Source: Cytophagaceae bacterium (GTDB taxonomy: Bacteria; Bacteroidota; Bacteroidia; Cytophagales; UBA9547). From it: a stretch of 64,000 nt of DNA. The stretch lies in contig JAIYAU010000018.1 of the NCBI GenBank assembly GCA_027488865.1, positions 2,635 through 66,634 on the forward strand, written 5' to 3'. Under the pieces are notes generated by a model. That model searched no databases. It was not told the DNA's origin and was given only the letters and a program-made list of their open reading frames with translations. Each line of letters begins with the position of its first letter. Within the stretch, counting starts at the first letter, position 1. Made by a program: the position numbers and the translations under genes. Positions 10,106 to 59,361 of the stretch are shown piece by piece.

Positions 10106-11346
10106 ATTATTTTTGTATAAAAATGGGACAGGAAACTAAATGTTACATAACTTTCAATTATAATTATTCCAATTAAAGCTCCTATTAAATCAAATTTATA
10201 GGTCATGACTATAACCATTGGAATGCCAAACACGCATGCACTAGTGTAAATTTTTTGGTAAATTTTTTGCATATTTTTAGCAATTAGGATTTGATAAAAG
10301 GGGATATTAACACAAATAACAATTGGAGTTAACAATAATAATTGTAAGTATTTGTAGTATAACAAATCGTTAGGAATAAAATAGTTTATTATTATTTTCG
10401 CAAACAACATACCTATTAAACTCAAAACAACTATTAGTATAAAAAACGGTAGATAATACGTTCTAAAAAATTGGTACAGAGGTTGGGTTCCTGATAAGGA
10501 TAGTTGACAAACTCTAGGGTAAATGGAGTTGCTATATACACTTAAAAGGTGCCTATACAAAAGAATTATTCTTTCAAAAATACCGTAAATCCCCAAAATA
10601 TAGGGTGTAACAAAATAACTTAATATCAAACTTGTTGAATTGGAATATAATGAAATAGATAGATTGGAGTAGAAAATAAATCTTCCTTCTGATAAGGTTT
10701 TTATAATTTTGCTTAAAGGTATAAATTTTAAAGTATAGTTTTTTGATTTAAATAAATATAAAGTTCCAATTAAGCCTGAAACTACATTTCCTAATCCATA
10801 TAAAAGGCATACCCATTGATAATCATTAGAATCTTTAATAACTAGAAATATCATTCCATTAAAAAAAATTTTTGAGATTACATTAAGTAAAGTTAGAAAG
10901 TCCATTCTTTCTATACCTTGAAAAAACCAAGTTGGAAGTAGAGCATTTCCTACAACCATTGAAAATCCTAAAATAAAGGCTAAAAAATTTTCTTGCCCGA
11001 TTTTATAAAGACATACAAATATTAAGTAGAATACGAAACAAATTATTAGTAACAAAAATTTAGTTGAATAGATACTGTTTACAATGTTATTTAATAATAA
11101 TTCATTATTTTTATTTTGCGCTACCTCTCTTGTCGCTGAAATATTAAATCCATAATCAACTACATTTTGAAAAAAGATAATTGAACTTAAAATCGCTGTT
11201 ATAATCCCAAAATGTGATAATCCAACAATTTTTATAACATAAGGGAAAGTTAATATTGGGATAATAAAATTTGTTAGCTGGATTAATGCAAGCGAAATAA
11301 AATTTCTAATCACCTTATTTTTTAATATGCTTGTTATGAGTAACAT
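10078..11346 (-). CDS. wzx: Polysaccharide flippase (MOP superfamily, Wzx-like)
   Basis: 422 aa, about 12-14 TM segments. N-terminus NFISLALIQLTNFIIPILTFPYVIKIVG is typical of the Polysacc_synt family. Its 3' end overlaps the convergent gene by 28 nt. Confidence 0.7.
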   Translation of the reverse strand: MLLITSILKNKVIRNFISLALIQLTNFIIPILTFPYVIKIVGLSHFGIITAILSSIIFFQNVVDYGFNISATREVAQNKNNELLLNNIVNSIYSTKFLLLIICFVFYLIFVCLYKIGQENFLAFILGFSMVVGNALLPTWFFQGIERMDFLTLLNVISKIFFNGMIFLVIKDSNDYQWVCLLYGLGNVVSGLIGTLYLFKSKNYTLKFIPLSKIIKTLSEGRFIFYSNLSISLYSNSTSLILSYFVTPYILGIYGIFERIILLYRHLLSVYSNSIYPRVCQLSLSGTQPLYQFFRTYYLPFFILIVVLSLIGMLFAKIIINYFIPNDLLYYKYLQLLLLTPIVICVNIPFYQILIAKNMQKIYQKIYTSACVFGIPMVIVMTYKFDLIGALIGIIIIESYVTFSFLSHFYTKIIQFLNTKKL

Positions 11347-17007: not shown

Positions 17008-17760
17008 TTATTCTTTTACCAATTTGGTAGATTTACCGTTACTTTTTAATACATACACACCTTTGCTTAATTCAGAAATATTTGCCTCATCAAATCCTTT
17101 AAGCAATAGTTGTCCATTTAGATCATAGATTTCAAAAGCGCCTTCACAATTAATTCTATCTGTCGCTGGGTTTGGATAAAATGTACTTGGTGTTTGAATA
17201 ACGTCCTCAACACTTGTAATGTTGGTGACGCTGTTGCCTTTTAATAACATAGTATAAACACCTGCACTTGCTCTTTTAACTTGATTCCCACCCGTAATAG
17301 TAATTGTAAGTGTTGCACTTTTTTGGCCAGTATTAGGTTCTGTAACACTTACGCATTGTAATGTTGTCGGGCAGCCGCCATTAGGAGGCTTAGGTATACA
17401 ACCAGGTTGAATGATAGCAATACGTTTTTGATATGTTTTAGAGCCGGGAACAAAAAAAACATTAAAACTATTGCTTTTACCACTATAATCAACAGAAAAA
17501 GATGAAGGATCTTGTTCAACACCACAAACAGTTGTACCGCTAGTAGTGATATCTTCCAAAAGGCTATAAGTGATTGATTCACCAGACAACAAACCATTTA
17601 CAGTAAACGACTTAGATGCAGTACTTGAAAAAAGGCTTTGACCAAAATCGTACTCAAAACCACTCGTGGTTTGGGTAGCATTGGTAATAGTTACTGTCGG
17701 CTGTGCTAAAAGGCCAAACACGAAACAATTGGTTAAAATAAGTAGTAAAGATTTTTTCAT
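17008..17760 (-). CDS. Secreted protein with a type-A T9SS C-terminal sorting domain
   Basis: Signal peptide MKKSLLLILTNCFVFGLLAQ. The C-terminus FYPNPATDRI...YDLNGQLL...GVYVLKSNGKSTKLVKE matches the Por/T9SS CTD pattern. Confidence 0.7.
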   Translation of the reverse strand: MKKSLLLILTNCFVFGLLAQPTVTITNATQTTSGFEYDFGQSLFSSTASKSFTVNGLLSGESITYSLLEDITTSGTTVCGVEQDPSSFSVDYSGKSNSFNVFFVPGSKTYQKRIAIIQPGCIPKPPNGGCPTTLQCVSVTEPNTGQKSATLTITITGGNQVKRASAGVYTMLLKGNSVTNITSVEDVIQTPSTFYPNPATDRINCEGAFEIYDLNGQLLLKGFDEANISELSKGVYVLKSNGKSTKLVKE

Positions 17761-23255: not shown

Positions 23256-26200
23256 TTATTCTTTCACTAATTTAAAATGCTGTAGTTGGTCATTTGAAAT
23301 AACCGTTAGCATATAAACACCAGCCCTAAGATTTTCTCCAAGCAGCACTTTTTCCTCATTAATCGTTTTCTTCTCTACCAATTTGCCTGTTTGGTCGTGC
23401 ACAAGAATTAAGCCCTCTTCAATATTTGCTAAATAAACTGTGGCATAATTGTTAAAAGGATTTGGGATAATGGATATGTTACCCAATTTACTATTCACAT
23501 TTACTTTTTTAGAATAGGTATTCACTCCATCTGCAACATATTTTATTTGATAATATGGTTTGGTAATTACCTCAGCATGAGCGTAATGGTATTCAGTTTT
23601 GTTTTGTGCTGGCATGTTACCAACTACTTGTAGATTATTCACATCATCGCCATTTAACACCTCGTAATAACCTCCTTCTTCACCAGCAACAGTCCATGTT
23701 AAGTTATTTATTAAATTTTTAGTAGAAACTTGAAAATTGATAAAATCTAGAGGTAATGCACCCAAACAATTAACTACGTATTGTGATTTTATATTTGCAA
23801 GTCCATAAATAGAGGCATTCCCAATATTTGTAATGAAATTTGTACATTGGTTTACAGTTGCCTTAAAAGTTCTGGTAATTGAATCATTACCCAACATAGG
23901 ACCAGCTAAAGTAGGCCAAGTGATTGTTCCCGCAGACAATACTCCACCGTTTGAAATAGCCGTCACATTGTTAAGATCCCCAGGGACAGGGTCAGTTAAT
24001 ATAATGTCAAAAGCAGAATCAAATTTAGTTTTATAACTTGTCATGCGTTGTTGTGAATTAGAAAATAGACCCACATAACCAGCAGCCATATTCGTGATGC
24101 CACTGTAAACTTTAAGTGGTGTTCCTGAAAGGGTATTTACCCAGAAATAAATTTTATCATCAATGAGCTCCGCCCTCACAGTGATAGGGTCAGGGCTTCC
24201 ACCATAAGAAATGTTGTTTTCAGATATAATAGAATTTGTGTTATTAAATAACTGCAAGTTCATGGTATTGTTTCCCATTGGATTGGGAGTAATTCTCAAT
24301 CTTACACCATTAAAATCCGATTGACCAGGTGTGCCTGCCGTGTGTCTGAAAATGAGGTTTATATCACTAGCATTTGAAAGATCAAAAACTGCCTCCATGT
24401 AGCCATTTTTACCATGAGATTTTTTATGACCAAAGGCATAACCAATAGAACCTGGATTAGGATTACCAGGAGTGTTCGGATCAAATGAAATCGCCGAGTT
24501 GGTTAGGATTGGAATAAAACCATTGCCAAGTTTTTGCCAGTCAGCTGTCACAGCTCCCGACCCAAAAACCCCATTTACTGTAGCACCATCTTTGTTTTTA
24601 AACTTGAGCGTATAGGTGATAATATCTCCGATAGACACATCTTTTTTATCTGCAGTTTTAAACAATGATGTTTCTACAGGAGGTAAGGGTGGAATTGGGT
24701 TACAAGTAATTGTTAAAGGAACTTGAGAAGAATCAGGAGAATCAGTTAATGATTTTATCCAACCAACATTGACAAAATCAATATCTGGACTAGGGCACGG
24801 TGGGTTTTTCGCAATAGTTTGATAAGACAAATCACCTTTTTCACCAATCAACATGGTAGGGATTTCCCATTTTACGACTCCTGTATAACTTGCGCCAACT
24901 GCTGCTGCTGTGTACGTGGCTGTTACTCCCAAGGCAATATTATCAGTAAATCCATTCCAAGTCAGCCACTTAGGTATGGTGTCATAAACTACCACATTAT
25001 ATGCTTCTCTTCCAGGAAGAGGTCCATTGCCTAATATTCTGCGCCAAGTATATCCATCAAATTCTTCTACCAACACCTTTTTAAAATTCGGAACATCTGG
25101 ATTGCAGACATCTTTTCCATAATTGTTTACAGCCACATTTAAATTAGTATATTTTGCCCAACTATTCGATACAGGCGATAGTCGCACATTTTGCGCCGCA
25201 ATTTGATTTACATCTATGGTATTACTATAAGACCAGTCATCGGCCAGTCTCACACCAAGCATTGAAGAAGGTTTAGATTCTAATTTTGTTCTAATGAATC
25301 CTGGACCAAGTACACCTTTATGAATCAAGTATTGGTTGTCAAGTTTGTCAAAAATATGGGTAGCAGGGGAGGTTAAAACATCAGCAAATCGAATCACCAG
25401 CCTTTGATTCCAACTACCGTTAGCATCTGAACCAGCTGGAATCGCTTGATAGTTAAAAGTGATAGGCCCAGAAGCGGGATTATAACCATATTTATTTAAA
25501 TCACTTTGGTTATCTACTGAAAAGTCCCAACCTGTAGGATTGGTAGTGGCATCATATAATCCCAAGGCAGCAGCATCGTTCATAAAATAAGAAACACGAT
25601 AGTTTTTCATGTTTATGTAAGCTTCTTCAGCACCATGCCATAGTCTATAAAATTGATAAAAAGTGTATCCATTGTTTGGATAATGATTTCCATAAGATAA
25701 TACTACCTTGTCTCTTCCTCCATTCAGCCAAGCATTGCTACTAGATTTATTTTCAAACTCCAGTTTAAAATCTGTGATATCTCCTGGATTCATCTTTCTT
25801 CTATTGGAAGTTTTTTTGATCGTAAGTGTTCTATCGAGTAATATATCAACACAATTTCGCTCCATAGTATAAGTGGCATTGTTAGGATACTCGTTACTTG
25901 TCCAAATTTTAGTGTTTTTAGAATCAAAATAGTTATTACTTGCTGTAATGGTAGTAAGCAAGCAAACCCTATTTGAAACAGGATTAGCTACTACTTTTAC
26001 AATGAATTGAACCTTACCAGTAGTAGGCGCAATACCACCAGCACTCGTAAAACCAGGCAAAGAACCAATATTCCAAGAAATGGTATTGCCAGCTAAAGTA
26101 CCTCCATTTGTGGCTGAAACAAATTCATAATCAGTACTTAAGGTAGCTGTAACTAAAGTGTTAAGGGCGGTAATTGAGCCATAGTTTCTATAGTCTATCG

Positions 26201-27896
26201 TATACGTTAAAAAATCTCCTGCATAAGCATACGTTCGGTCTACTGATAAATAAGATTTTACATTGGCCAAAGCATTAATGGTGGTAGGTGGGTGAAGATT
26301 ACCTGAATTGGTCAACATTCCTAAAGTTCTAAACCAATCATGAAAATATATAGGAGTACTTCCTATATATCTTTGTCTTTCTGTTAAACCAGTACTTTTT
26401 TTGGAAGCATCATCCCACATGATTTCTGCTTGTCTGTACATTTCTGCGATGAGTTCTAAGTCTTCTGAAGCCACGGCGGCAGGTGCTCCAGTACCTACAT
26501 TATAGTTGGTTCTAAATTGGCTTGCAATAGTACCGTCGACACCTATGGCTTGGGGTATATTAGCAACGCCTTTATATAGGGGGCAGGCAGGATCAGGCGA
26601 TGAGCCATATTGATTACATTGGGGTGTTCCTATGGGTTTGCCTGGGCCTTTTAAATATAAGGCATGTCGAAGAGCCATATCTCGTTCGTAGGTATTTGGT
26701 ATGTTTTCTACTTGGTGCGTAACAGGATTCCAGCGCGTAGTAGGATTGCCATGCCAGACATAGTTTAAAATAGTTCGCCATGCTGCTCTGAAGTCCTCAC
26801 CTTGAGGTTCTTTTGGGTGTGGGCCAAAGGTTGTAACAGTACCATTGTTGTTGACGGTGCAATTACCTGAAGAAGCAACATACCCTTTGGCATACATTTG
26901 CCCGATCAGCCAATCAGACGAGGCTTCTCCTCGTAGATACTGGTTAATTTGCCATGGAGTTCCACCGTTAGCAGCAAGATATTTGGCAAATTGATTAAAA
27001 TAAGCAGGACCAATATAATCTGTGTAAAGTAAAGATTGAGAAAAGGCCTCTGGTTTTAAATGGGAGTTTGGAAATATTTGGTTGGCAGCATTATATCTCC
27101 AACTTGTAATTTCATCCCAAGTATTTCCATTTTTGCAATATCCATCTACACCAATATCACCAGATAAATATCCTGTAAGGGCTCCAGCACCAAGGTTTAA
27201 CAAGGGTATTGTATCAACAATTGCATTAATCATTTTTCTTGCTTCTACTTGATAGCTAATAGGATTGCCACAAGCATCGTTTATTCCCATGTTAGCCCCC
27301 CATTGTTTAAAAGCAATCAATAAGGCCATAGCAATGTCATAATCTCCGTCTGTCGCAGAGTCATTGTCACCATCATTAACGGGTGTTGTTTGATCATTTT
27401 TCCAGCCTGGTAAATTTGGACCATACCTATAAGTTGGTCTCAAATCAGCACAATTGTCATATCTTTTTACCTTACTAAGTCTATTGTCATGTACCCATAG
27501 CCAAAGTCCATCAAATGCTTCCTTATCTGCAAAATAAGCGGCAGCTAACAAGGCATATCCATCTCCTTCTGATACGAAAGTATTATTGTTTTCAGGTACA
27601 ACGCTCGCATTATAAATAATGTATCTTTTCCCATTTAAAACTTTTCCAGAATAAATACAACGGTGCATCATTATTTGATAGGCCTCCCGCATTGCTTTTT
27701 CCATATCTGCGTGAGTGACTCCTTCGGCATTATATTTGCCAAGTGTTTTACCTTGATTATATTCTAAAAATTGTGGAAAAGGAAAAGCTGGATTGTTTGA
27801 GTTAATATTAATTTTAATGGTATCAGCGGGCCAAGATTGTGCTGAAGCATTATTTAAAATCAATATTATTCCCAAGAGGGTTAATATTTTTTTCAT
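23256..27896 (-). CDS. 1546-aa secreted multidomain glycoside hydrolase: N-terminal GH8 catalytic domain, DUF11-type repeat domains, a ConA/LamG-like domain and a T9SS C-terminal sorting domain
   Basis: SATDGDYDIAMALLIAFKQW matches the PROSITE GH8 signature A-[ST]-D-[AG]-D-x2-[IM]-A-x-[SA]-[LIVM]-[LIVMG]-x-A-x3-[FW] at every position. The upstream SEGDGYALL carries the putative catalytic Glu. The C-terminus IIPNPFNNYATVYL...GVYMLTVISNDQLQHFKLVKE is a T9SS CTD. Confidence 0.85.
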   Translation of the reverse strand: MKKILTLLGIILILNNASAQSWPADTIKININSNNPAFPFPQFLEYNQGKTLGKYNAEGVTHADMEKAMREAYQIMMHRCIYSGKVLNGKRYIIYNASVVPENNNTFVSEGDGYALLAAAYFADKEAFDGLWLWVHDNRLSKVKRYDNCADLRPTYRYGPNLPGWKNDQTTPVNDGDNDSATDGDYDIAMALLIAFKQWGANMGINDACGNPISYQVEARKMINAIVDTIPLLNLGAGALTGYLSGDIGVDGYCKNGNTWDEITSWRYNAANQIFPNSHLKPEAFSQSLLYTDYIGPAYFNQFAKYLAANGGTPWQINQYLRGEASSDWLIGQMYAKGYVASSGNCTVNNNGTVTTFGPHPKEPQGEDFRAAWRTILNYVWHGNPTTRWNPVTHQVENIPNTYERDMALRHALYLKGPGKPIGTPQCNQYGSSPDPACPLYKGVANIPQAIGVDGTIASQFRTNYNVGTGAPAAVASEDLELIAEMYRQAEIMWDDASKKSTGLTERQRYIGSTPIYFHDWFRTLGMLTNSGNLHPPTTINALANVKSYLSVDRTYAYAGDFLTYTIDYRNYGSITALNTLVTATLSTDYEFVSATNGGTLAGNTISWNIGSLPGFTSAGGIAPTTGKVQFIVKVVANPVSNRVCLLTTITASNNYFDSKNTKIWTSNEYPNNATYTMERNCVDILLDRTLTIKKTSNRRKMNPGDITDFKLEFENKSSSNAWLNGGRDKVVLSYGNHYPNNGYTFYQFYRLWHGAEEAYINMKNYRVSYFMNDAAALGLYDATTNPTGWDFSVDNQSDLNKYGYNPASGPITFNYQAIPAGSDANGSWNQRLVIRFADVLTSPATHIFDKLDNQYLIHKGVLGPGFIRTKLESKPSSMLGVRLADDWSYSNTIDVNQIAAQNVRLSPVSNSWAKYTNLNVAVNNYGKDVCNPDVPNFKKVLVEEFDGYTWRRILGNGPLPGREAYNVVVYDTIPKWLTWNGFTDNIALGVTATYTAAAVGASYTGVVKWEIPTMLIGEKGDLSYQTIAKNPPCPSPDIDFVNVGWIKSLTDSPDSSQVPLTITCNPIPPLPPVETSLFKTADKKDVSIGDIITYTLKFKNKDGATVNGVFGSGAVTADWQKLGNGFIPILTNSAISFDPNTPGNPNPGSIGYAFGHKKSHGKNGYMEAVFDLSNASDINLIFRHTAGTPGQSDFNGVRLRITPNPMGNNTMNLQLFNNTNSIISENNISYGGSPDPITVRAELIDDKIYFWVNTLSGTPLKVYSGITNMAAGYVGLFSNSQQRMTSYKTKFDSAFDIILTDPVPGDLNNVTAISNGGVLSAGTITWPTLAGPMLGNDSITRTFKATVNQCTNFITNIGNASIYGLANIKSQYVVNCLGALPLDFINFQVSTKNLINNLTWTVAGEEGGYYEVLNGDDVNNLQVVGNMPAQNKTEYHYAHAEVITKPYYQIKYVADGVNTYSKKVNVNSKLGNISIIPNPFNNYATVYLANIEEGLILVHDQTGKLVEKKTINEEKVLLGENLRAGVYMLTVISNDQLQHFKLVKE

Positions 27897-36672: not shown

Positions 36673-37794
36673 TTAATCTTTAATGATTTTAAATGTTTTT
36701 AAGTCATTTTCTGTTTCAATCCTCACATAATAAACACCTGAATTAAGTGTTGATATGTCAACCAAGTTGGTTTCTTTTTCAAGATTATAATGTTGGACTT
36801 GTTTTCCATCAAATGAATATATATATAATTTGACCATTTCTTCCACAGCAATGTCAATTTCCAATTTGTTGTTGTGTTTTATTAAAATAATTTCTTTTGA
36901 GCTAAAAACTTCCTTATTATTGGAATAAGTTATTTCCCCAAGTTTATCAACCGCTTTTAAGCGAACTAAGGTGTTTTCAAGATTGGTATTTATAAATTCT
37001 TCATATTCTTGATAGCCATTTTGACGAGACGTTATTGTTGAAAGTGTTTGCCATTTTTCACCATCTTTATATTCGATTTCATAATAATCCATCTCATCTT
37101 CTTGTGCCGACCAATAAAATGCTAAGCCATTATTAGTACTTTTTACATCAAAATTGATTAAGCTTACTGGAGTGGTGGTTGGAATACTATAATTAAGTCT
37201 CATTACCACATAATTAACAGAAATACTCGCTGTACCTGTGGTAGAAGGCATATTTATGTTAGGTACAAAAGAAAAGGCGAAATTTCCGCTAGTTAAGTCT
37301 GCTACTGATAAAGAGCTATTACCCCAAAGTTCGCTTGCGCCCCCATAGCCACCACAACCAAAAAGTGGAAAACAAAAGATTTCTGGTGCAAATTTTCTTC
37401 CTATTTGTACTCCATTGTTAAGTAATCGCACCTCGAGCGTATAGTTAGTTGATGTGCCACCAGGACTTGAAATAGAACCATAGGCAAAAACCGTTAATCC
37501 GCATACAACGGCATTTGCCGGCAAAGTGGGGAATGTGCCTGTGAGAATTAAACTTGCAGGGTTAGTGCCTGTTGTACAGGGAGGTGTAGTACATGTAAAC
37601 GAATAAGAAGCATTTGTAGCATCATTTGTAAGAATGTTGTTAGGATTGTTCCAGTTGGGTACCCCAGGTACCACTGAGGCGGTACCATTATGAACAAAAT
37701 TAGCTGTTGAAGTACATTGTGCGTAACAAAAACTATTTTTTATAATACTTAAAAAAGTAATATTTATTGCTATCAAGAATAGTTTGTTAAACAT
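36673..37794 (-). CDS. Secreted protein with a T9SS C-terminal sorting domain
   Basis: The likely start is MFNKLFLIAINITFLSIIKNSFCYAQ (residue 22 of the listed ORF). The C-terminus LYIYSFDGKQV...GVYYVRIETENDLKTFKIIKD is a T9SS CTD. Confidence 0.65.
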   Translation of the reverse strand: MFNKLFLIAINITFLSIIKNSFCYAQCTSTANFVHNGTASVVPGVPNWNNPNNILTNDATNASYSFTCTTPPCTTGTNPASLILTGTFPTLPANAVVCGLTVFAYGSISSPGGTSTNYTLEVRLLNNGVQIGRKFAPEIFCFPLFGCGGYGGASELWGNSSLSVADLTSGNFAFSFVPNINMPSTTGTASISVNYVVMRLNYSIPTTTPVSLINFDVKSTNNGLAFYWSAQEDEMDYYEIEYKDGEKWQTLSTITSRQNGYQEYEEFINTNLENTLVRLKAVDKLGEITYSNNKEVFSSKEIILIKHNNKLEIDIAVEEMVKLYIYSFDGKQVQHYNLEKETNLVDISTLNSGVYYVRIETENDLKTFKIIKD

Positions 37795-38024
37795 ATGTAG
37801 TTTGTTAGATAAATAAAAGCAAAAATGTAATGTAAGCTCTTTTGTATAAGGCCACAAATAAAGTAGTAAAAGTACAATATATTCTCAAATTAATCAATAA
37901 GTTTAGTTCAATCCCGATCCCGCTTCGGTGTAAAACTAATCTGCATTTTTGATCTAAATCATACATCTATTATTTAGTTAAATTTTAAATTGTACAAGTG
38001 GCCTTTATAATTCATTATAATTAT

Positions 38025-38032
38025 TAAATTTG
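38025..38032 (+). promoter_or_regulatory. Candidate -7 box (TAAATTTG) for the ParA-like gene
   Basis: Exact TAnnTTTG match about 75 nt upstream of the ATG at 38106. Chance occurrence is plausible. Confidence 0.3.
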
Positions 38033-38105: not shown

Positions 38106-38858
38106 ATGAATCCACAGATTATATCCGTCGTTAATCAAATAAAAGGTACGTACAAAACAACTACTTGCATTCAATTGGCTAAAGCACTATTTAAAAGCCA
38201 CAAAAAGGTTTTAGTGATGGATTTGGACGCTGTAAATGTGGCAAATAACCACGAGTATCATGGGGTATTTAATTCAAAACAAAACATTTCAAAACAAACA
38301 GAGTCAGGTATTATAACAAATAATGAATTTGATTTAATTAGCTACATTTCTCTGGCTATGGTAATAGAATCTAATGATCAATCTATTGATAATGAATTTA
38401 TTATTACTAACCTACTTAAAAGTATTGTCAAGAAATACGATTACATCCTTATCGATTGTCCTGCTGGCACTCCAAATCTTTACAAAAATGCATTATTGGC
38501 TTCAAATTGGCTAATTGTGCCCATACCTATTGATCAACTTAGCTTAAGAGCTTTAGAAATGCTTCAACAAGAAGTAAATGAGGTTAATATAAATTATGGA
38601 AATAATTTGCAAATTTTAGGGATACTACTGATAAAACATGAGAATAGTCAACAAATTTCCCAAGAAATCAGAATCTATATCACACAAATACTAAATTTGA
38701 AGATATTTAATCATACTATCAGTTACGATAGTCCATCGTTAAAAACAACTAAATTGAAAAAACCTGTTGCTTCAGTTTTGCAACTAGAATATCTTGCATT
38801 TTCTGAGGAGTTTAGAAAAACTATTAAGGCTAAGCTGTTGATTGAGAGTTCAATGTAA
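38106..38858 (+). CDS. ParA/MinD-family protein with a degenerate deviant Walker A (probable pseudo-ATPase)
   Basis: Collinear with Soj/ParA: IISVVNQIKGTYKTTT aligns with IIAVANQKGGVGKTTT, VLVMDLD with VLLVDLD, and YILIDCPAG is the Walker B. The signature Lys is replaced by Ile, and the Gly before the P-loop Lys is replaced by Tyr. Confidence 0.65.
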   Translation: MNPQIISVVNQIKGTYKTTTCIQLAKALFKSHKKVLVMDLDAVNVANNHEYHGVFNSKQNISKQTESGIITNNEFDLISYISLAMVIESNDQSIDNEFIITNLLKSIVKKYDYILIDCPAGTPNLYKNALLASNWLIVPIPIDQLSLRALEMLQQEVNEVNINYGNNLQILGILLIKHENSQQISQEIRIYITQILNLKIFNHTISYDSPSLKTTKLKKPVASVLQLEYLAFSEEFRKTIKAKLLIESSM

Positions 38859-38951
38859 AATGAGCTAAAAAATTTATTAAAATTTTAAACATTTTTAAAG
38901 GATATTAGTATTCACATCGCTAGTTGTCACCAACATTAAAATAATTTTATC

Positions 38952-39299
38952 ATGATAGAATTTGATAAAATAGCTCAAGGTTATGGTATTCCAGATTCTT
39001 CAATAGTTAAAATGGTAACTATATTTATTGAAAGTACTAAAAGTGATTTATCTGTATTACAACACGCAATATATTTAGGTAACTTTCTAAAAATTCATAA
39101 AACTGCTCATAAACTTAAGTCATCTTTCGGGTATTTTGATTTGAAGTTACTTGTATTAACGTGTCAACAACTGGAGTTGGAAGCATATGAAACAAATAAA
39201 GTCGAATGTCAGTTGCTTATCAATCAATTGATGCTCGACCTAGAACACGTCTTTGAACAAATGAATAAATATTTGTCTTCCGCCCCCAAAATTAGTTAG
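38952..39299 (+). CDS. Stand-alone histidine phosphotransfer (Hpt) domain protein
   Basis: 115 aa, four-helix-bundle-like. HKTAHKLKSSFGYF matches the Hpt H-x-L-K-[GS]-S phospho-His motif. Confidence 0.7.
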   Translation: MIEFDKIAQGYGIPDSSIVKMVTIFIESTKSDLSVLQHAIYLGNFLKIHKTAHKLKSSFGYFDLKLLVLTCQQLELEAYETNKVECQLLINQLMLDLEHVFEQMNKYLSSAPKIS

Positions 39300-39424
39300 T
39301 TGTTAATTGTCTAGCATTTAATATTTTCCATGCACACCGAAAATTGAATTTTTAATCACTTCTGCTCTCAATATTTTTTTGTTAAACAATTATTCTCCTA
39401 TATTTAACTTTTAAGTTAGGCATA

Positions 39425-40618
39425 ATGAAGGGTCAAAACATAATTTTTATAGGTCAACAAGATTTTGATAATGAGGTAGGTTCTAATGCGGTAAACATGG
39501 CCTGTGAAATGGCCAAAAACAATCAGGTGGTTTACATAAATAACGCCTTGGATAGAAAAACCCTAAAAAACAAAAGCAACGATCCCAAAATAATTAAAAA
39601 ACTAAAAATTAGGAAGGGTCAAGAACTTGGTCTACAACAAATTAATAATACGCTTCAAATTTTTTATCCAAAGGTAATTTTAGAATCAATTAATTGGCTT
39701 CCGTCGGGGTTTGTTTATGATTTTTTTAATAAAATTAATTCAAAAAGACTAGCTAGAGAAATAAACAAACTAGTATCAAGCTTGGGTTGGAAAGATTACA
39801 TTTTGTTTAATGATTGTTTAATTTCTAAAACATTCTATTTTAATTCCTTACTAAAGCCTAAAAAGTATTTCTATTATATTAGAGATAACTTTAAACCTAT
39901 TCCTTATTTTCAAAAACATGCCATTAAAGAACAAGAACATATTCTTGGATATGTGGATGCTGTATTTGCTAATTCTGGCTTTTTAGCAAAATATGCTTCT
40001 CAATTTAATCCACTATCTTTTGATATTGGCCAAGGGTGCGATTTAGACTTATATTTAAAAGTAAATATAAATACTTCATCAGAAATTGAGGCCATAGAGG
40101 GAATTAAAATAGGATATACAGGCTTTTTGACCTCCATGCGATTAGATATCAAACTTATTGAAAAAATTGCAGAAGAAAGACCGAATTGGCAAATTGTTTT
40201 AGTAGGGCCAGAAGACGATCGCTTTAAAGCTAGTTCACTTCATCAACGGTCAAATATTCACTTTTTAGGTCGTAAAGCACCTGAACAAATGCCAAATTAC
40301 ATTAAAGGTTTTGATGTGTGCTTTAATCCACAGTTAATTAACGAATTAACTGAAGGAAATTATCCTAGAAAAGTGGATGAATATTTGGCCATGGGAAAGC
40401 CTGTAGTGGCTACCAAAACGGATTTTATGGCATATTTTGCTGATTGTACCTATCTTGCTACTGATACTGTTGAGTTTATAGAAAAAATAGAACTTGCTTT
40501 GGCAGAAGATTCTGAACAAAAACAAAAACAAAGGCTTGAGGTAGCAAAAGGGCATTCTTGGGAAGATAATGTAAACAAAATTTATAAAGTAATAGAAGAT
40601 AAATTCCAGATTTATTAG
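39425..40618 (+). CDS. Glycosyltransferase, GT-B fold (GT4/TuaH-like)
   Basis: C-terminal half IGYTGFL...VLVGPE...IHFLGRK...FNPQ...PRKVDEYLAMGKPVVAT is typical of GT1/GT4 retaining transferases. Confidence 0.7.
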   Translation: MKGQNIIFIGQQDFDNEVGSNAVNMACEMAKNNQVVYINNALDRKTLKNKSNDPKIIKKLKIRKGQELGLQQINNTLQIFYPKVILESINWLPSGFVYDFFNKINSKRLAREINKLVSSLGWKDYILFNDCLISKTFYFNSLLKPKKYFYYIRDNFKPIPYFQKHAIKEQEHILGYVDAVFANSGFLAKYASQFNPLSFDIGQGCDLDLYLKVNINTSSEIEAIEGIKIGYTGFLTSMRLDIKLIEKIAEERPNWQIVLVGPEDDRFKASSLHQRSNIHFLGRKAPEQMPNYIKGFDVCFNPQLINELTEGNYPRKVDEYLAMGKPVVATKTDFMAYFADCTYLATDTVEFIEKIELALAEDSEQKQKQRLEVAKGHSWEDNVNKIYKVIEDKFQIY

Positions 40619-40649
40619 ATTTTTACTTCATGTATGTTAATTTTAGCAA

Positions 40650-42101
40650 ATGGATTCTAAAAAGTACGATCTTATTGTAGTAGGTACGGGGTTTGCCTCC
40701 TCATTTTTTCTTAAAAAATACTTAGAAAAATGTAAAGAAAACGTTAAAGTTTTGGTGTTGGAACGTGGGAGACTTTATAGTCATATGGACAGACTTGCCA
40801 GTTTAAGAGGTAAATCTCCTTCTTACCAAAGTGATTTAGAATCACATGAAAACGCTGTAATCAATAAAAATCCTAGTAAACCATGGGTTTTTGATGTTAA
40901 TTTTGGGGGAAGTAGTAATTGTTGGTGGGCATGTACGCCTCGTTTAATGCCAAATGATTTTCAGGTCAATTCACTTTATGGAAAAGGGCAAGATTGGCCA
41001 ATTTCTTATAATGAAATAGAATCTTATTATTGCGAAGCTGAAGATATAATGGGTATTTCTGGACCTGATGTTACGCCATTTCCAAAAAGCAAAAAATACC
41101 CGCTTCCATCTCATATCTTAAGTACTGTGGATAAAAAAATGCAGGCCAAATATGGTCAAAACTGGATTAGTCAGCCAACAGGCCGTGCCAGTGCTGCTTT
41201 TGGTAAAAGAAATGCATGCTGTTCAAGTTATACTTGCAGTGTTTGCCCAGTAGATGCCAAATTTACCATTGAGAACGGTCTTAAATATTTATATGAAGAT
41301 CCAAGAGTAGAACTTGTATATGGCAAACAAGTAATAAAATTGGAAACAGAAAATAATATTGTTAAGGCAGTTGTTTGTATTGCCACAGGTACAAATGATT
41401 TATCAAAAACCCAGAAGTTTGAGGGTGAGGTTGTTGCCCTTGGAGCCAATGCCATATTTAACGCTCATATTTTATTGAATAGTGGAGACAGCAATCCACT
41501 TACGGGAGCGGGTATTTGTGATCAACGCGGGTTTTTTGCCAATATGAATATTGATATGGATAATGTTGGAGGAAGTTCTGCCCTTACTGCAAACGGTTAT
41601 ATGCAATATGATGGTGATTTTAGGAAAGAGAGTGCCTCTTGCCTCATTGAAAACCACAATGCCCCCATGATCAGAAACGAAAAGGGCAAATGGCGTAAGT
41701 TGGCTAGATTTAAATTTGTGTTTGAAGAAATTCCTAATAATGATAATAGAATTAAAGCTGGAGAAAATTTACTCAAACCAGTTATTGAATACGGCGGACA
41801 TTCGAGCTATATCGATGCTGGTAAAAAGAGGGTAGTGGCAAAAATGAATGAAATTTTTAGTCCATTGCCTGTAGAAGAAATTTTTGTAGATGATTATTAC
41901 CAAGATACTGAATTCCACGTACTTTCGAGTGTGCGTATGGGAACTTCTAAGGAAAACAGCGTGGTGGATAAAAGTATGATTCATCATCAATTCAGAAACT
42001 TGTTTGTTTTGGGCGGCAGTGCCTTCCCTAGTGTGTCCGCCTCTAATCCATCACTCACTATATCCGCATTATCATTAAAATCTGCTAACGAAAACTTTTA
42101 A
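40650..42101 (+). CDS. GMC-family FAD-dependent oxidoreductase (no signal peptide)
   Basis: N-terminal Rossmann YDLIVVGTGFASSF. The C-terminal GMC_oxred_C pattern is HHQFRNLFVLGGSAFPSVSASNPSLTISALSLKSA. Confidence 0.85.
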   Translation: MDSKKYDLIVVGTGFASSFFLKKYLEKCKENVKVLVLERGRLYSHMDRLASLRGKSPSYQSDLESHENAVINKNPSKPWVFDVNFGGSSNCWWACTPRLMPNDFQVNSLYGKGQDWPISYNEIESYYCEAEDIMGISGPDVTPFPKSKKYPLPSHILSTVDKKMQAKYGQNWISQPTGRASAAFGKRNACCSSYTCSVCPVDAKFTIENGLKYLYEDPRVELVYGKQVIKLETENNIVKAVVCIATGTNDLSKTQKFEGEVVALGANAIFNAHILLNSGDSNPLTGAGICDQRGFFANMNIDMDNVGGSSALTANGYMQYDGDFRKESASCLIENHNAPMIRNEKGKWRKLARFKFVFEEIPNNDNRIKAGENLLKPVIEYGGHSSYIDAGKKRVVAKMNEIFSPLPVEEIFVDDYYQDTEFHVLSSVRMGTSKENSVVDKSMIHHQFRNLFVLGGSAFPSVSASNPSLTISALSLKSANENF

Positions 42102-42124
42102 AGGTTTTACAAAATTTTACCATT

Positions 42125-42571
42125 ATGACCAATCGTCGCAATTTTATTAAACTTAGCATAGCTGCAACAGCACTGGCACCGGTAGCTTATTTGGGTTACC
42201 AGGCCATGTTGCCATTTCAAAAAACTATACAAAATATATTAATTAAAGATTTAGCGGGTCTTAAAGTGAAGAGCGAAGATATTGACAAGTTTGCAGCTCA
42301 AGCTGCTCAAGAAAATCCTTGGGGTTTTTCGGGAAGCAAGGTCAAATTTATTTCATTTTACAATAGCATTCACAATCAGTGGCTTCCCTTGCCATTTAAG
42401 TATAAATATGAACAATACAGGGCTGATATTGTAGGTAGGTTTCTACTTTCAACTGACTTTTTTATTAACAAAATGAATGAAAGTAAGGATATAACTTATA
42501 TAGGCATTATTTACAGCCCTTATAAAACACCTTGCAGCAATCCTTTTTCTGCAGCTTATTATCCTTCTTGA
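42125..42571 (+). CDS. Small Tat-signal protein, likely partner subunit of the GMC oxidoreductase (gluconate 2-dehydrogenase subunit-3-like)
   Basis: Twin-arginine motif MTNRRNFIKLSIAATALAP. The gene lies 23 nt downstream of the GMC gene. The family assignment comes from context. Confidence 0.5.
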   Translation: MTNRRNFIKLSIAATALAPVAYLGYQAMLPFQKTIQNILIKDLAGLKVKSEDIDKFAAQAAQENPWGFSGSKVKFISFYNSIHNQWLPLPFKYKYEQYRADIVGRFLLSTDFFINKMNESKDITYIGIIYSPYKTPCSNPFSAAYYPS

Positions 42572-43278
42572 TCTTCTTCTTCCGCTTCGTATTTAGATTT
42601 TCGGGTAACTTTTTTACCTTCTACCACAATTACGATTTCACCTTTGAGAGTTTTTGTATTGTAATGGGTAATAATTTCATCGAAGGTACCATTTACCGTT
42701 TCTTCAAACATTTTGGTGAGTTCTCGTGACACAGACGCTTGTCTATCAGTACCAAAATATTCTTTAAATTGCTCCAAAGTTTTTAAGAGTCTAAAAGGAC
42801 TTTCGTAAAATATCATGGTCCGAGATTCATTTATTAGACTCTCTAAATGGGTTTTTCTACCCTTTTTTTGAGGTAAAAATCCCTCAAAAGTAAATCGATC
42901 AGAAGGAAGTCCTGACTTAACCAAAGCAGGAACAAACGCTGTAGGCCCAGGCAAACACTCTACTTCAAGGCTAGCTTGCAAACAAGCCCGTACCAGTAAA
43001 AAGCCGGGATCCGAAATGGCGGGAGTACCTGCATCAGAAACTAAGGCTATCTTTTTACCTTCGTGCATGGTTTTAATGAGCTTCTCCAAACTTTGATGTT
43101 CATTAAACGCATGATGACTTTGTAATGGCTTTGTTATTCCTAAATGTTTGAGTAAAAAGCCACTGGTTCGTGTATCCTCTGCAAGAATTAGATCAACCTC
43201 CTTTAGAATTCTAATAGCTCGCAAGGTGATATCTTCAAGATTGCCAATAGGGGTAGGAACAAGGTAAAGATGCGGCAT
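42559..43278 (-). CDS. rsmI: 16S rRNA (cytidine1402-2'-O)-methyltransferase RsmI
   Basis: LYLVPTPIGNLEDITLRAIRILKEVDLILAEDTR and ALVSDAGTPAISDPG are motifs of the tetrapyrrole-methylase-fold RsmI family. Confidence 0.9.
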   Translation of the reverse strand: MPHLYLVPTPIGNLEDITLRAIRILKEVDLILAEDTRTSGFLLKHLGITKPLQSHHAFNEHQSLEKLIKTMHEGKKIALVSDAGTPAISDPGFLLVRACLQASLEVECLPGPTAFVPALVKSGLPSDRFTFEGFLPQKKGRKTHLESLINESRTMIFYESPFRLLKTLEQFKEYFGTDRQASVSRELTKMFEETVNGTFDEIITHYNTKTLKGEIVIVVEGKKVTRKSKYEAEEEDQEG

Positions 43279-43380
43279 TGGAATTATTAAAATGTAAGTG
43301 CCACAAATATAGTCGATTTTAAAAACATGCCACGATTCTTTATTATGCCCATGTCAATTTAACTTGACTTTTAAATGGCG

Positions 43381-44553
43381 TTACTTTTTTAAATTATGAG
43401 GATAAAAGTTAAGATATTTTTCCTTAACCAATTTAACTAAAACATTTCTAAATTCTTCAATGTTAGTTCTTTGTGAAGCACTTATAAACACTACATAGTC
43501 GGATTTCTTCTGCATATAGGTGTTTTTAAAGAATACTAGTTTTTCATCTTTTGTAAGCACTTCGTCCTCATCAATATCATAAGCGTCAATTTTATTCATC
43601 ACAATTATAGTAGGTTTGTCCGCAGCCTTTATCTCTATTAGAGTTTGGTTTACTACGTCAATATGCTCTTCAAAAGAAGAATGAGAAACGTCTACCACAT
43701 GAACTAAAATATCGGCTTCACGCACCTCATCTAATGTACTTTTAAAACATTCTACCAGCGTATGGGGCAGTTTTCTTATAAAACCCACTGTATCGGTTAA
43801 TAAAAATGGCGTTTCTTCTAGTACAACCTTTCTTACTGTAGAATCAACTGTAGCAAAAAGTTTATTTTCAGCAAATAAGTCAGCTTTTGTGATCAAATTC
43901 ATTAAGGTTGACTTGCCTACATTTGTATATCCAACTATGGAAACACGAACAACACCATCTCTTGATTTTCTTCTGGTAATGCTTTGTTTATCAATCTTTT
44001 TTAACTTTTCCTTCAATAAGGTTATTTGTTCCCTAATCTGTCTTTTGTCAGTTTCAATCTCCTTTTCACCCGAGCCACCTCTGGTACCTGTGCCCCCTCG
44101 CTGGCGCTCTAAGTGAGTCCACATGTTGGTAAGTCGGGGTAACAAATATTGATAACGCGCCAATTCAACCTGTGTCTTAGCTTGAGCAGTTTGAGCACGT
44201 TGTAAAAATATATCCAAGATTAATAAACTGCGGTCGTATATTTTAACCTCAAGTTCACTCTCCAAATTCCGCAGTTGAGAAGGGGAGAGGTCGTCATCAA
44301 AAATAACAGTGTCTGCACCAGAGGCAGTTACATAAATACCTATGTCTTGTAGTTTTCCTTTGCCCACAAAAGTGCGCACGTCAGGCCTAGGTAACTTTTG
44401 GGTAAATCTTTCTAAGGTGGTTATGCCTGCTGTTTGTGCCAAAAAGGCCAATTCATCTAAATACTCCTGTGTTTTGGCTGAATTCTGCTTGTCAGTTGAT
44501 AATGCAACAAGTACTGCTTTGCTGGCTGGTTTTTCGTAATCAATGAATCCCAA
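43381..44553 (-). CDS. hflX: GTPase HflX
   Basis: HflX N-terminal domain, then G-domain motifs G1 GYTNVGKST, G3 DTVGF and G4 NKID. Confidence 0.93.
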   Translation of the reverse strand: MGFIDYEKPASKAVLVALSTDKQNSAKTQEYLDELAFLAQTAGITTLERFTQKLPRPDVRTFVGKGKLQDIGIYVTASGADTVIFDDDLSPSQLRNLESELEVKIYDRSLLILDIFLQRAQTAQAKTQVELARYQYLLPRLTNMWTHLERQRGGTGTRGGSGEKEIETDKRQIREQITLLKEKLKKIDKQSITRRKSRDGVVRVSIVGYTNVGKSTLMNLITKADLFAENKLFATVDSTVRKVVLEETPFLLTDTVGFIRKLPHTLVECFKSTLDEVREADILVHVVDVSHSSFEEHIDVVNQTLIEIKAADKPTIIVMNKIDAYDIDEDEVLTKDEKLVFFKNTYMQKKSDYVVFISASQRTNIEEFRNVLVKLVKEKYLNFYPHNLKK

Positions 44554-44827
44554 ATGTTCTTATTTATATTTTTTTGTTTACAAAATTAATTACAAAGATA
44601 AATAATTTGAATTACAATTTGTTCTAATTTAAGCAAACAGCTTCAAACCAGTTATATTTTAATATTTTATATTAAAGGTTCTTAATAAGTTGAGTATGTT
44701 ATATTTTATTAATTGTTATCCTGTTTAAAATAGAGTTTATAAAATAGTATTAGAAGTTTTAAAACGTTTAAATGCTTAAGATAGATGTTAATTAGGTTTT
44801 TAGAATGGTAAGAACAAGATTTAAATA

Positions 44828-45247
44828 ATAGAAAGAATTATTAAAATTTGTTTAAACCTTTTTTATAAAATAGGAAGGTAAATTAAGATTTGGTTAAAAG
44901 TTACTAAATAAATAGAAAGCGGTAATTAGTTTGGCTTAAACATTGATTATAAAATAGAAAGGTAAATTAAGTTTGGTTTAAAGGTTACTAAATAATTAGA
45001 AAGCAGTAATTAGTTTTGTTTAAACATTGGTTATAAAATTGAAAGGTAAATTAGGTTTGTTTAAAAGGTTACTAAATAATTAGAAAGCAGTAATTAGTTT
45101 TGTTTAAACATTGGTTATAAAATAGAAAGGTAAATTAGGTTTGGTTAAAAAATTAATAAATAAATAGAAAGCATTAATTTATTTTGTTCCAGAGTTTATT
45201 ATTAGTTAGAAAGCATTAATAGGTTTTGGATAAAAAAATGAGGAACA
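44828..45247 (+). repeat. Tandem array: ten in-register 42-bp units (five 84-bp A+B dimers), with degenerate copies extending back to about 44730
   Basis: The anchor octamer (A/T)T(A/T)G(A/G)AAG starts at 44828, 44870, 44912, 44954, 44996, 45038, 45080, 45122, 45164 and 45206. The units at 44996 and 45080 are identical over 42/42 nt. All reading frames are closed. Confidence 0.9.
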
Positions 45248-57516: not shown

Positions 57517-59265
57517 TTAATAAATAACTACTTTCTCAGTTTTGTTATTCAATTTGATGAAGTACATACCTTTTTCAAGACCTTCTACAGATACTTGAGT
57601 ATCTACACCAGCTCTTACCACTTTACCAGCAGCATTGAACAATGTAAATGCAGTACTAGACTCAGCGATAGTTAAAGAACCACCAGAGATCGGGTTAGGA
57701 TAAACCGATGAGTTAAGAACTGGAGTGATGATAGCGTCTTCAGAAGAAGTGATTGAAGATAATCTACCATCGAAAGAGGCACCAGATAGCGCTGGAGAGT
57801 TGGCTTTAGGTCTGTAATTTGGAGCAGTTGCATTATTAGGATCTGTCAAAACGTCTGCCGTTGTGAAAAGACCGTTTTTAATGCCAACTGTGTTATCATT
57901 TGCAGAACTTGTAATAAAGTTATTTGCATTTGTTAAATCTCCCGCTAAAGAAACTTCTACTAAACCATTTGAAGTTGAAGCTCCAGTAATTCCTTCGTAG
58001 GGATTCACGAACAAATTGTTTTTTACTTCTATTATCTCATTAGCAACAGCTTTAGTTCCTTTAACACCGGCATAAGCCAATACAGAATCACTTTCCAATC
58101 TTATTGCATTTTTGTAACCCATAAAAATGGAGTTATAAATACTTAGTTTAGTATTTCTTCTAATGAGCGCTCCTGTTCTAAATGCAGATTGTTGCGTATT
58201 GTTTAAAGAATCGTAAGTTTTACCGACCGGAATAGGACCAACACAAGTAATGTTACTAAAAATTGGTTTGGTGTAAGGTTTAGCACCTGTACCTTGACCA
58301 TCGTTATCAGATTCAAATGTGTTTGAACCGTTATTTGCACTTGATGAATATGTAACATCAAATAACCCTTTATCTCGAACCGCTATCCCAAATTGTACTA
58401 TCCCTGAAAAACCAAAATCTGTATCAAAATCGTCATCAGTAACCTTGTAAGAAATTAAATGTTTACAATTTACATTTCCTCCGAACCATTCAAATCCGTC
58501 ATCTGCACCATAAGATACTTGAACATAATCAATTGTGGTAGTATTGTTTACTGCACCCATAGTAAGAGAGTTAGTTTCTCTATCTGTATCTAAATCAGTA
58601 CCAGCAAATTCAATTCTAAGGTACTTTATAGATCCATTACTAAAAGTTTCATTATTACCACCAAAACGACCAAAGTTTTTTAAAATTGGTTTTCTATCAA
58701 ATCCTTCTAATTGAGGAAGACTTGGGGATATACTTCTGTTAGATCTACCTGGACCACAAATTAATACTCCTGACCAATCTTCTGGAGCTCTGTCACCAGG
58801 AGCTTTGTTAGAAGTCATTACTACTGGGCTAGTCTTTGTACCTTGAACATCAATCTTTCCAGTTGTAGTAACAAGAATCATAGCGTAATTATTAGCAGAT
58901 GGCTGTGATTCAGCTCTTATAACAGTACCAGCAGGTATAGTTAAAGTGGCTCCATCACTAACAATAATCATACCTTTAAGTAGATAAACAGAAGAAGATG
59001 ATAAGGTTAAATCTGTTTTTATTGTTTTTCTACCTATTGTATCCCCAGAAGCAACATTATCCATTGCGTTTAAAGTGCTATTATCTGTAGTAGCGTCATA
59101 GGCTTTAAATTTTGGATTAAATTCTGTCCAACCTGCTGTCCAATCTTGATCGATGTCAGAACTTAAAGCACCAACATATGTGGTTGGGGTTAAAAATTGC
59201 GCATTTACGCTAAAAGCACTTAGCATTGCTAGGCTTGTAACAATTTGTAAAAATCTTTTTTTCAT
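57517..59265 (-). CDS. Secreted protein with a T9SS C-terminal sorting domain, co-operonic with the TonB-dependent receptor
   Basis: The likely start is MKKRFLQIVTSLAMLSAFSVNAQ. The C-terminus VYPNPISGGSLTI...GMYFIKLNNKTEKVVIY is a T9SS CTD. The central region is beta-helix-like, with DDGFEWFGGNV. Confidence 0.65.
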   Translation of the reverse strand: MKKRFLQIVTSLAMLSAFSVNAQFLTPTTYVGALSSDIDQDWTAGWTEFNPKFKAYDATTDNSTLNAMDNVASGDTIGRKTIKTDLTLSSSSVYLLKGMIIVSDGATLTIPAGTVIRAESQPSANNYAMILVTTTGKIDVQGTKTSPVVMTSNKAPGDRAPEDWSGVLICGPGRSNRSISPSLPQLEGFDRKPILKNFGRFGGNNETFSNGSIKYLRIEFAGTDLDTDRETNSLTMGAVNNTTTIDYVQVSYGADDGFEWFGGNVNCKHLISYKVTDDDFDTDFGFSGIVQFGIAVRDKGLFDVTYSSSANNGSNTFESDNDGQGTGAKPYTKPIFSNITCVGPIPVGKTYDSLNNTQQSAFRTGALIRRNTKLSIYNSIFMGYKNAIRLESDSVLAYAGVKGTKAVANEIIEVKNNLFVNPYEGITGASTSNGLVEVSLAGDLTNANNFITSSANDNTVGIKNGLFTTADVLTDPNNATAPNYRPKANSPALSGASFDGRLSSITSSEDAIITPVLNSSVYPNPISGGSLTIAESSTAFTLFNAAGKVVRAGVDTQVSVEGLEKGMYFIKLNNKTEKVVIY

Positions 59266-59361
59266 TTTATTTAAGTTTAAAACCATTACAAATTTATTCT
59301 AATGGAAGTAATTAAATGTTACCTAAATGTTAACAAATAATGAATTAATCAACTTATAATC

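Follow-up and report, generated by a model that had tools for sequence, protein, structure and literature searches.

A divergent ParA-fold protein with an altered deviant Walker A motif, encoded beside a stand-alone Hpt protein in a Cytophagales bacterium

Gene layout and the two encoded proteins

The stretch of DNA analyzed here (the window; 64 kb, or 64,000 nucleotides [nt], with all positions given as window coordinates) belongs to a Cytophagales bacterium and contains two co-oriented open reading frames (ORFs), separated by a gap of 93 nt, that encode a ParA-like protein and a stand-alone Hpt protein (Table 1). Both ORFs were reconfirmed at the coordinates and with the spacing that an initial annotation of the locus had given. 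The first gene product is most likely a lineage-specific, fast-diverged member of the small (Soj/type Ib) ParA branch of the ParA/MinD ATPases. Its IKGxYKT loop, and above all the Lys at the position of the first Gly, is unusual and is known from a single genome without evolutionary replication. The ParA-like/Hpt pair is a curiosity, with no conserved module or new system demonstrated.

The two genes probably form one transcription unit, since they are co-oriented, lie 93 nt apart, and have a Bacteroidota-type -7 box upstream of the first gene only. This box is the sole instance of TAnnTTTG across the three intergenic regions, with none between the ParA-like gene and the Hpt gene or between the Hpt gene and the glycosyltransferase (GT) gene that follows, and its placement is weakly consistent with a single transcript for the pair. 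The scan for sigma-70 promoters and terminators was uninformative, as it returned 9 sites versus 12.2 expected, fewer than in shuffled sequence. The composition of the ParA-like gene is native-like, with a G+C content (GC) of 0.30 and a third-position GC (GC3) of 0.26, versus 0.34 +/- 0.04 and 0.27 +/- 0.05 for the genes of the window. Pfam scans of all real ORFs of the 64 kb identified no histidine kinase, receiver, ParB, che, MCP, integrase, or Rep gene, in agreement with the earlier observation that the window lacks a histidine kinase and a response regulator, and no Tra remnant was found within the 64 kb either. Insertion of the pair as a mobile element was considered and rejected: a flanking 26-nt repeat (37768/39363, 81% identical) does not stand out among a dozen other chance pairs, the window has no integrase or Rep gene, and GC and GC3 are native. 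An anti-phage defense system was rejected as well, with neither the two proteins nor their neighbors having a PADLOC match at an E value of <= 0.01; the PHROG match is to the generic ParA family only.

The ParA-like protein matches Pfam AAA_31 (9.5e-25; 88 bits; cut-off, 27) as well as CbiA and MipZ. The AlphaFold2 (AF2) model, which the initial annotation had proposed as a check of the P-loop, is confident (pLDDT, 85.7; pTM, 0.86), with the P-loop block at a pLDDT of 89 to 95. In Foldseek comparisons, the model reaches a TM-score of ~0.77 with ParA-ATP (8ray), Helicobacter pylori Soj (HpSoj; 6iub), and TtSoj (2bek), at 20 to 25% identity. Profile, fold, and alignment all agree with the earlier assignment to the ParA/MinD family, collinear with Soj/ParA, and the segments that had been singled out, DLD (39 to 41), YILIDCPAG (113 to 121), and ILGILL (170 to 175), are present as described. 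The sequence appears to have been kept as a folded protein, since the ORF is intact and the model is confident despite an identity of <=33% to anything known.

The protein scores far under every NCBIfam equivalog cut-off, including those of ParA_partition (59.5 bits versus 180), MinD (TIGR01968; 40.9 versus 212.9), BcsQ (30 versus 158), and the BY-kinases (TIGR01007; 21.8 versus 108). An identity as MinD was rejected on this score, on the absence of min genes, and on a hydrophobic moment of only 0.10 over the last 11 residues; the peak moment of 0.66 sits inside the structural terminal helix. A BY-kinase of the Wzc/CapB type was rejected on its score and on the C-terminus, ...KAKLLIESSM, which has no Tyr cluster. 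A partition ParA of a ParABS system was rejected because there is neither a ParB_N domain nor a small basic ORF, the basic DNA patch is lost, and the downstream gene encodes an Hpt.

The second gene product is a genuine stand-alone Hpt, as had been proposed for this 115-aa protein: it matches Pfam Hpt above threshold (1.4e-10; 41.7 bits; cut-off, 24.6) over profile positions 2 to 72 of 84, and its His aligns with the active His of solved Hpt structures. Its NCBIfam matches are confined to the Hpt ends of TorS, RcsD, and ArcB. The motif H53-K-L-K56-S57 has Lys at +3 and Ser at +4; across ~10,000 Hpt sequences, the H+4 position is Gly in 87% and Ser, the second most frequent residue, in 10.4% (PMC6341664). 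From its sequence, the Hpt looks intact, canonical, and functional. It resembles the single-domain Hpts Ypd1, the plant AHPs, and 7c1i in its length of ~115 aa, its all-helical character, its H-x-x-K-[G/S] motif, and the aligned His, but it differs from them in having no close homolog and no two-component gene within the 64 kb. Single-sequence AF2 modeling gave four long helices at a low confidence (pLDDT, 47), too poor for a fold search. Derivation of the Hpt from a CheA P1 domain was rejected, as there is no similarity to CheA P1, and so was a disguised small plasmid partner, as there is no similarity to the 55- to 127-aa ORFs downstream of the relatives of the ParA-like gene.

Table 1. Features of the ParA-like/Hpt locus and residues of the Walker A region; column counts refer to 136 aligned relatives
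Feature	Coordinates	Strand	Basis or remarks
TAAATTTG, fits Bacteroidota -7 promoter consensus TAnnTTTG	38025..38032	+	Motif match only; 73 nt upstream of the ParA-like start codon
ParA/Soj-fold protein, divergent orphan, 250 aa	38106..38858	+	Pfam AAA_31, AF2, Foldseek
Walker A region N10-T20, NQIKGTYKTTT	38133..38165	+	Changes K12I, G13K, G16Y; G14, K17, T18 kept
Position 12, I			K in 132/136 relatives
Position 13, K			G in 133/136 relatives, K in 0/136
Position 14, G			G in 136/136 relatives
Position 16, Y			G in 111, A in 22, S in 2, T in 1
Position 17, K			K in 135/136 relatives
Walker A'/switch D39-L-D41-A-V43	38220..38234	+	Both Asp kept; Gln of DPQ replaced by Val
Walker B strand Y111-D-Y-I-L-I-D117-C-P-A-G121	38436..38468	+	D117 invariant
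Stand-alone Hpt protein, 115 aa	38952..39299	+	Pfam Hpt, 1.4e-10
Codon of His53, predicted phospho-acceptor, motif A-H-K-L-K-S-S	39108..39110	+	Aligns with the active His of 7c1i and 1wn0
Left edge of nucleotide homology with the sister lineage	39372		blastn against L002 to L005: 77% identity from 39372 to 44595, nothing upstream

The nucleotide-binding core of the ParA-like protein

In a phmmer alignment, residues 3 to 189 of the ParA-like protein align to HpSoj without a gap over the P-loop and with identical numbering, placing NQIKGTYKTTT against NQKGGVGKTTT, and the P-loop register is unchanged when 12, 76, or 136 relatives are aligned by MAFFT. An alternative register, which the initial annotation had raised as a way in which a canonical motif might reappear, was rejected, as the phmmer alignment and the three MAFFT alignments agree and none restores that motif. 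The deviant Walker A consensus is KGGxxK[ST] (PMC9178275), and the form KGGxxGK[ST] used previously was wrong. The ParA-like protein reads IKGTYKT at this site, and it matches neither the consensus nor the signature lysine. Two replacements had been described in the loop, K12I and G16Y, and both are real; a third, G13K, had been overlooked.

The cis catalytic core of the protein, K17, T18, D39, D41, and D117, is kept. In the relatives, position 39 is Asp in 134/136, position 41 is Asp in 136/136, and position 43 is Gln in 134/136; D41 of HpSoj is the catalytic Asp (D41A mutant structure 8jml). Along the Walker B strand, Y111, D112, and P119 are conserved, and P120 is Ala in the ParA-like protein. 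Of the 37 columns conserved at >=80%, the protein departs from the conserved residue at 10, whereas the 136 relatives do so at 3.2 +/- 1.9 (maximum, 9). The Soj DNA-binding basic positions correspond here to S181, Q186, S206, and P210: the column of R189 in Bacillus subtilis Soj, which is Arg in 68% of relatives, is S181, and K199 of HpSoj aligns to Q186 (PMC6393308). In addition, the loop I-P-K/R-x-V-K/R reads I-S-Y-D-S-P, and the moderately conserved basic columns outside the P-loop are all nonbasic (N96, T101, N161, S181, and S206).

The three loop changes do not carry the same weight. The Tyr before the P-loop Lys had been taken as a sign of a broken ATPase, but it is not diagnostic: the F-plasmid SopA, an active ATPase, natively reads KGGVYKT (PMC9178275 Table 1), which was confirmed by tblastn against >5000 plasmids annotated with sopA, and the residue before the P-loop Lys is Ala, Ser, or Thr in 25/136 relatives. 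Loss of the signature lysine, from which a pseudo-ATPase had been deduced, does not by itself imply one either, given the precedent of McdA, which has no signature lysine (SGGQGKT) yet forms an ATP sandwich dimer via Lys151 of another helix (PMC6582323). The telling changes are K12I, G13K, and Q43V, plus the loss of the DNA-binding basic residues, and they make a stronger argument than the one put forward initially. In the HpSoj-ATP dimer, Lys12 of the neighboring subunit hydrogen-bonds ATP, Gly13 and Gly14 of the neighbor pack on ATP, and a Gln43-Gln11 hydrogen bond bridges the subunits at the dimer interface (PMC6393308). These trans and dimer-contact positions, K12, G13, and Q43, are I, K, and V in the ParA-like protein. 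In B. subtilis Soj, the G12V substitution replaces the Gly equivalent to G13 and leaves the protein monomeric with ATP bound (PMC9564211). A compensating lysine in the manner of McdA was also sought and rejected, as the sole candidate, R148, is unremarkable, with 28% of relatives being basic at that column.

Compared with Soj and the type Ib ParA proteins (HpSoj 6iub, TtSoj 2bek, and ParA-ATP 8ray), the ParA-like protein has the same size and fold, the P-loop Lys and Thr, the Walker A' D-x-D, and the Walker B strand, but it has no signature Lys, first Gly, DPQ Gln, or DNA-binding basic residues, and it stands without a ParB, small basic partner, or parS context. McdA likewise is a ParA fold naturally without the signature lysine (PMC9178275; PMC6582323). 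However, McdA keeps both glycines and supplies Lys151 in trans, whereas the protein described here has no equivalent unusual basic residue; in addition, McdA is a DNA-binding protein with McdB and carboxysome genes as its partners, and the structural match to it is weaker (TM-score, 0.65). Soj G12V and BcsQ (RGGVGTT) are similar in that an altered P-loop changes or abolishes the dimer/ATPase cycle in a protein that is still a binding partner (PMC9564211; PMC9178275 Table 1), but G12V is a laboratory mutant, and BcsQ belongs to the cellulose synthase complex.

Relatives, distribution, and the downstream cassette

The best full-length relatives of the ParA-like protein, P0025 (33% identity) and P0027 (32%), are each encoded by the first gene of a chemosensory operon with the order ParA-like, PAS-MCP, CheW, (CheD), CheY, CheB, and CheA with an Hpt/P1 domain. 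The gene for a third relative, P0028, is flanked by one for a PAS-GAF-HisKA kinase and by an ORF that has a HAMP-like segment and a tail rich in Lys. This context is that of PpfA/ParC, the array-positioning kind of ParA (PMC11407121), and the P0025 and P0027 operons offer a parallel in that they link a ParA-like protein to a phosphorelay in which CheA P1 is an Hpt domain. P0025, P0027, and P0028, however, have the canonical KGGxGKT, while the window has no che gene and its Hpt is unlike CheA P1. Assignment to the ParC/PpfA chemosensory-array ParA-like proteins was rejected, with no che or MCP gene in the 64 kb and the grouping with that clade unsupported. Other relatives are of the plasmid type (type Ib), including P0026 with ParB and P0029 with Rep3 and a 91-aa basic ORF, and P0030 and P0031 each have a small downstream ORF. 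The scores of these relatives fall from 97 to 87 bits without a break. In a neighbor-joining tree with bootstrapping, the ParA-like protein lies on the longest branch (0.86 versus a median of 0.52), and an affiliation with the chemosensory ParA clade was rejected, as no sister group exceeds 21% bootstrap support. The signalling affinity of the protein is a lead, not a placement. The chemosensory ParA-like operons themselves lie in the metagenome-assembled genomes GCA_002432545.1 and GCA_013297755.1 (L009 5001-10762, L010, and L011; L012 6001-12762, L013, and L014), and one of them lies near a gene for a protein of the type IX secretion system (T9SS) type; the layout is PpfA/TlpT-like and possibly lies outside the Proteobacteria.

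The canonical Walker A motif is kept in 144 of the 149 nearest relatives and is missing from 5. One of the latter, P0147 (L006 5001-5789), reads NQIAGVGKT, with the signature Lys replaced by Ile and the first Gly by Ala, and is encoded between MreB/GFO_IDH and APH/Wzy_C envelope genes. Another, P0045 (L008 293-1033), reads NHKEGTATT and has lost the P-loop Lys itself. With 5 such cases, sporadic decay of the Walker A motif is not unprecedented.

Both the ParA-like protein and the Hpt protein are singletons, with no ortholog found by a word-index search of 5.8 billion clusters (~15 billion proteins). An exhaustive phmmer search with the ParA-like protein against 1.84 billion representatives returned 11,047 ParA-family matches, among which only the query itself falls below 1e-30 and the best other match scores 97 bits at 33% identity. 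The sole second copy is a Logan contig that is 100% identical, and a genome-collection scan anchored on the GT gene detected no relatives. A scan with AspRS resolved the placement of the organism to Cytophagales only, and GTDB contains no representative of it at the species level. The pair is seen in no other sequenced genome, and the reading of it as a module, for which conservation of the two genes as neighbors had been proposed as a check, is unsupported because neither protein has an ortholog in ~15 billion proteins. No paper in the literature that was searched connects a ParA-like ATPase with a free Hpt protein, consistent with the earlier statement that no system pairing a degenerate ParA with a free Hpt has been described.

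Four further runs of the sample series contain a sister lineage, with the GT 83% identical in amino acids and the region ~77% identical in nucleotides. It keeps the block of GT, GMC oxidoreductase, 148-aa protein, RsmI, and HflX without the ParA-like/Hpt pair, and the edge of the homology lies 53 nt upstream of the GT start codon. In the slot upstream of the GT, the sister lineage carries a gene for a 453-aa leucine-rich-repeat (LRR) protein (LRR_4, 1.3e-36; L002 7307-8668), seen in four independent assemblies, and its other genes upstream of the edge also differ from those of the window. The pair is not part of the GT/GMC unit, because the homology with the sister lineage starts 53 nt before the GT gene and does not include the pair. 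The ParA-like/Hpt pair is independent of the GT/GMC cassette, and the proposed tie to the downstream glycosyltransferase and oxidoreductase fails, as the sister lineage keeps this cassette with the LRR protein instead. LRR proteins are unusual in free-living bacteria, and this one may hint at a host-associated lifestyle of the sister lineage.

Several further observations concern the surroundings of the pair. The region at 40650-42571 encodes the GMC-family oxidoreductase (483 aa) and then the 148-aa protein, which has no family assignment and only a weak, subthreshold match to a twin-arginine signal; the TuaH-like GT, the GMC oxidoreductase, and the 148-aa protein are a three-gene unit conserved in the sister lineage. 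A tandem array at 44822-45235 (84-nt period made of two 42-nt half-units, 4.4 copies, 86% matches) occupies the 738-nt gap between the HflX gene and a 221-aa ORF, and it is not conserved, because the homology with the sister lineage ends at 44595 and resumes at 45295. Upstream of the pair, on the minus strand, the gene at 36673-37857, listed with a TTG start, has its probable start at the ATG at 37794 (MFNKLFLIAINITFLS..., signal-peptide-like), and its product is a T9SS cargo protein with a Por_Secre_tail domain; the T9SS cargo genes of the window include this gene and those at 17008-17760, 23256-27896, and 57517-59286. Several T9SS C-terminal sorting domains encoded in the window fit an origin from Bacteroidota. 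In addition, a Wzx/Wzy-type polysaccharide cluster (Bac_transf, GT4, GT2, Wzy_C, Polysacc_synt, and a deacetylase) lies at 2518-11346. Its GC of 0.25 to 0.27 is clearly below the window mean of 0.34, and it may thus have been exchanged horizontally as an O-antigen or capsule locus.

Possible roles of the ParA-like/Hpt pair

The reading that we favor, for which confidence and doubt are about evenly balanced, is that the ParA-like protein is a lineage-specific ParA-fold nucleotide binder that does not assemble into the canonical dimer and whose gene probably shares a transcript with that of an intact Hpt, the latter acting for kinases and regulators encoded elsewhere. The protein would bind nucleotide through the kept fold and cis core (K17, T18, D39, D41, and D117), and the determinants of the canonical cycle, namely, the signature Lys (I12), the first P-loop Gly (K13), the DPQ Gln (V43), and the DNA-binding basic residues, are lost. 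It would be expected to form no standard ATP-sandwich dimer on DNA and to undergo no cycle of dimerization, DNA binding, and stimulated hydrolysis. The ParA-like protein may be a monomeric or otherwise noncanonical nucleotide-binding switch or scaffold rather than a gradient-forming partition motor, with the monomeric state suggested by analogy with Soj G12V and the HpSoj contacts and the loss of DNA binding predicted from the replaced basic residues. The Hpt, for its part, presumably passes phosphate between hybrid kinases and regulators whose genes lie outside the window. A functional coupling of the two proteins is suggested by their adjacency in one genome.

Several points weigh against this interpretation. 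Lys13, one residue past the usual place, might act as a displaced signature lysine, which is conceivable because McdA shows that such compensation is possible (PMC6582323). The G12V analogy involves a different substitution in a different protein, and the mapping of the DNA-binding residues rests on an alignment of ~25 to 30% identity in a region of the model that includes a low-confidence loop (residues 211 to 213). The N-terminus of the Hpt, MIEFDKIAQGYG..., lacks the basic character of the peptides by which known ParA partners stimulate the ATPase, which argues against the Hpt as a classical ATPase-stimulating partner. Finally, neither protein has an ortholog that could give a measure of purifying selection or show the adjacency to be conserved, and the second copy, from an independent Logan contig, is 100% identical and offers no polymorphism for a test of selection.

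Four other explanations were weighed. The pair, or at least the ParA-like gene, could be an evolutionary relic, that is, a leftover two-gene cassette that has lost its context and drifts without a conserved function, derived either from a plasmid type Ib parA with its small partner or from a PpfA-type ParA-like gene of a chemosensory operon. The singleton status among ~15 billion proteins fits this explanation, as do the position of the protein on the longest branch as the most degenerate of its relatives and the remodeling of 4 of the 5 residues between Q11 and K17 in the hallmark motif. The pair also sits at a synteny breakpoint where the sister lineage carries the unrelated LRR gene, the nearest relatives are plasmid ParAs (P0029 with Rep3 and P0026 with ParB) and the ParA-like proteins of chemosensory operons, and another degenerate member, P0045, lies near the chemosensory clade. 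On the other hand, an ORF of 250 codons has stayed intact in a gene of 30% GC, where stop codons easily arise, AF2 predicts the fold with confidence, none of the cis catalytic residues is missing, and the codon composition is native; moreover, no integrase, Rep, Tra, or che remnant lies within the 64 kb, and the Hpt resembles neither CheA P1 nor the small plasmid partner ORFs. Decay of this kind is unlikely on balance, but it deserves serious consideration. It is rather improbable that the protein is a still-working dimeric ATPase in which the shifted Lys13 or another basic residue replaces the signature lysine and which positions a cargo in the ParA/MinD way. McdA with Lys151 offers a precedent (PMC6582323), SopA tolerates a Tyr before the P-loop Lys (PMC9178275), and D41, K17, T18, and D117 are kept. 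However, the first Gly, which packs on the ATP of the partner in HpSoj, is Gly in 133/136 relatives and never Lys, Val at this position makes Soj monomeric, and Q43V removes an interface contact. R148 is ordinary, with 28% of relatives basic there, the DNA-binding patch is lost, and there is no adjacent gene for a partner with a basic N-terminal peptide.

The initial annotation had suggested that the pair may be a dedicated positioning or signalling module of a degenerate ParA and an Hpt, possibly with a link to the glycosyltransferase and GMC oxidoreductase genes downstream. In favor of this, the two genes are neighbors in the same orientation, the closest ParA relatives belong to signalling operons, and P0147, which also reads NQI, is encoded in a cell-envelope gene cluster. 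Nevertheless, the sister lineage keeps the GT-GMC-148-aa genes (GT, 83% identical in amino acids) without the pair, which contradicts the GT/GMC link; with no ortholog of either gene, no conserved pairing is demonstrable, and the affiliation with the chemosensory ParAs reaches <=21% bootstrap support, so that we regard such a module as very unlikely indeed. In a further, highly speculative proposal that seems hardly more probable, a ParA-fold protein that has given up dimerization and DNA binding, possibly descended from the PpfA-type ParA-like proteins, would act as a nucleotide-dependent adaptor that binds the free Hpt and localizes or gates a His-Asp phosphorelay. If true, a ParA/MinD-family ATPase would here be paired with an Hpt cargo, a combination not described before.

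For annotation, the label "ParA family protein" should not be read here as denoting a partition ATPase. Should the ParA-like protein prove functional, nature would provide a ParA/Soj fold that operates with none of the signature lysine, the first P-loop glycine, and the DNA-binding patch. Such a case would add to the lesson of McdA that the deviant Walker A motif is not indispensable, and it would point to the fold being used as a switch-like monomer. If the ParA-like protein and the Hpt are in fact physically linked, spatial-organization ATPases would be connected to phosphorelay signalling outside chemotaxis arrays.

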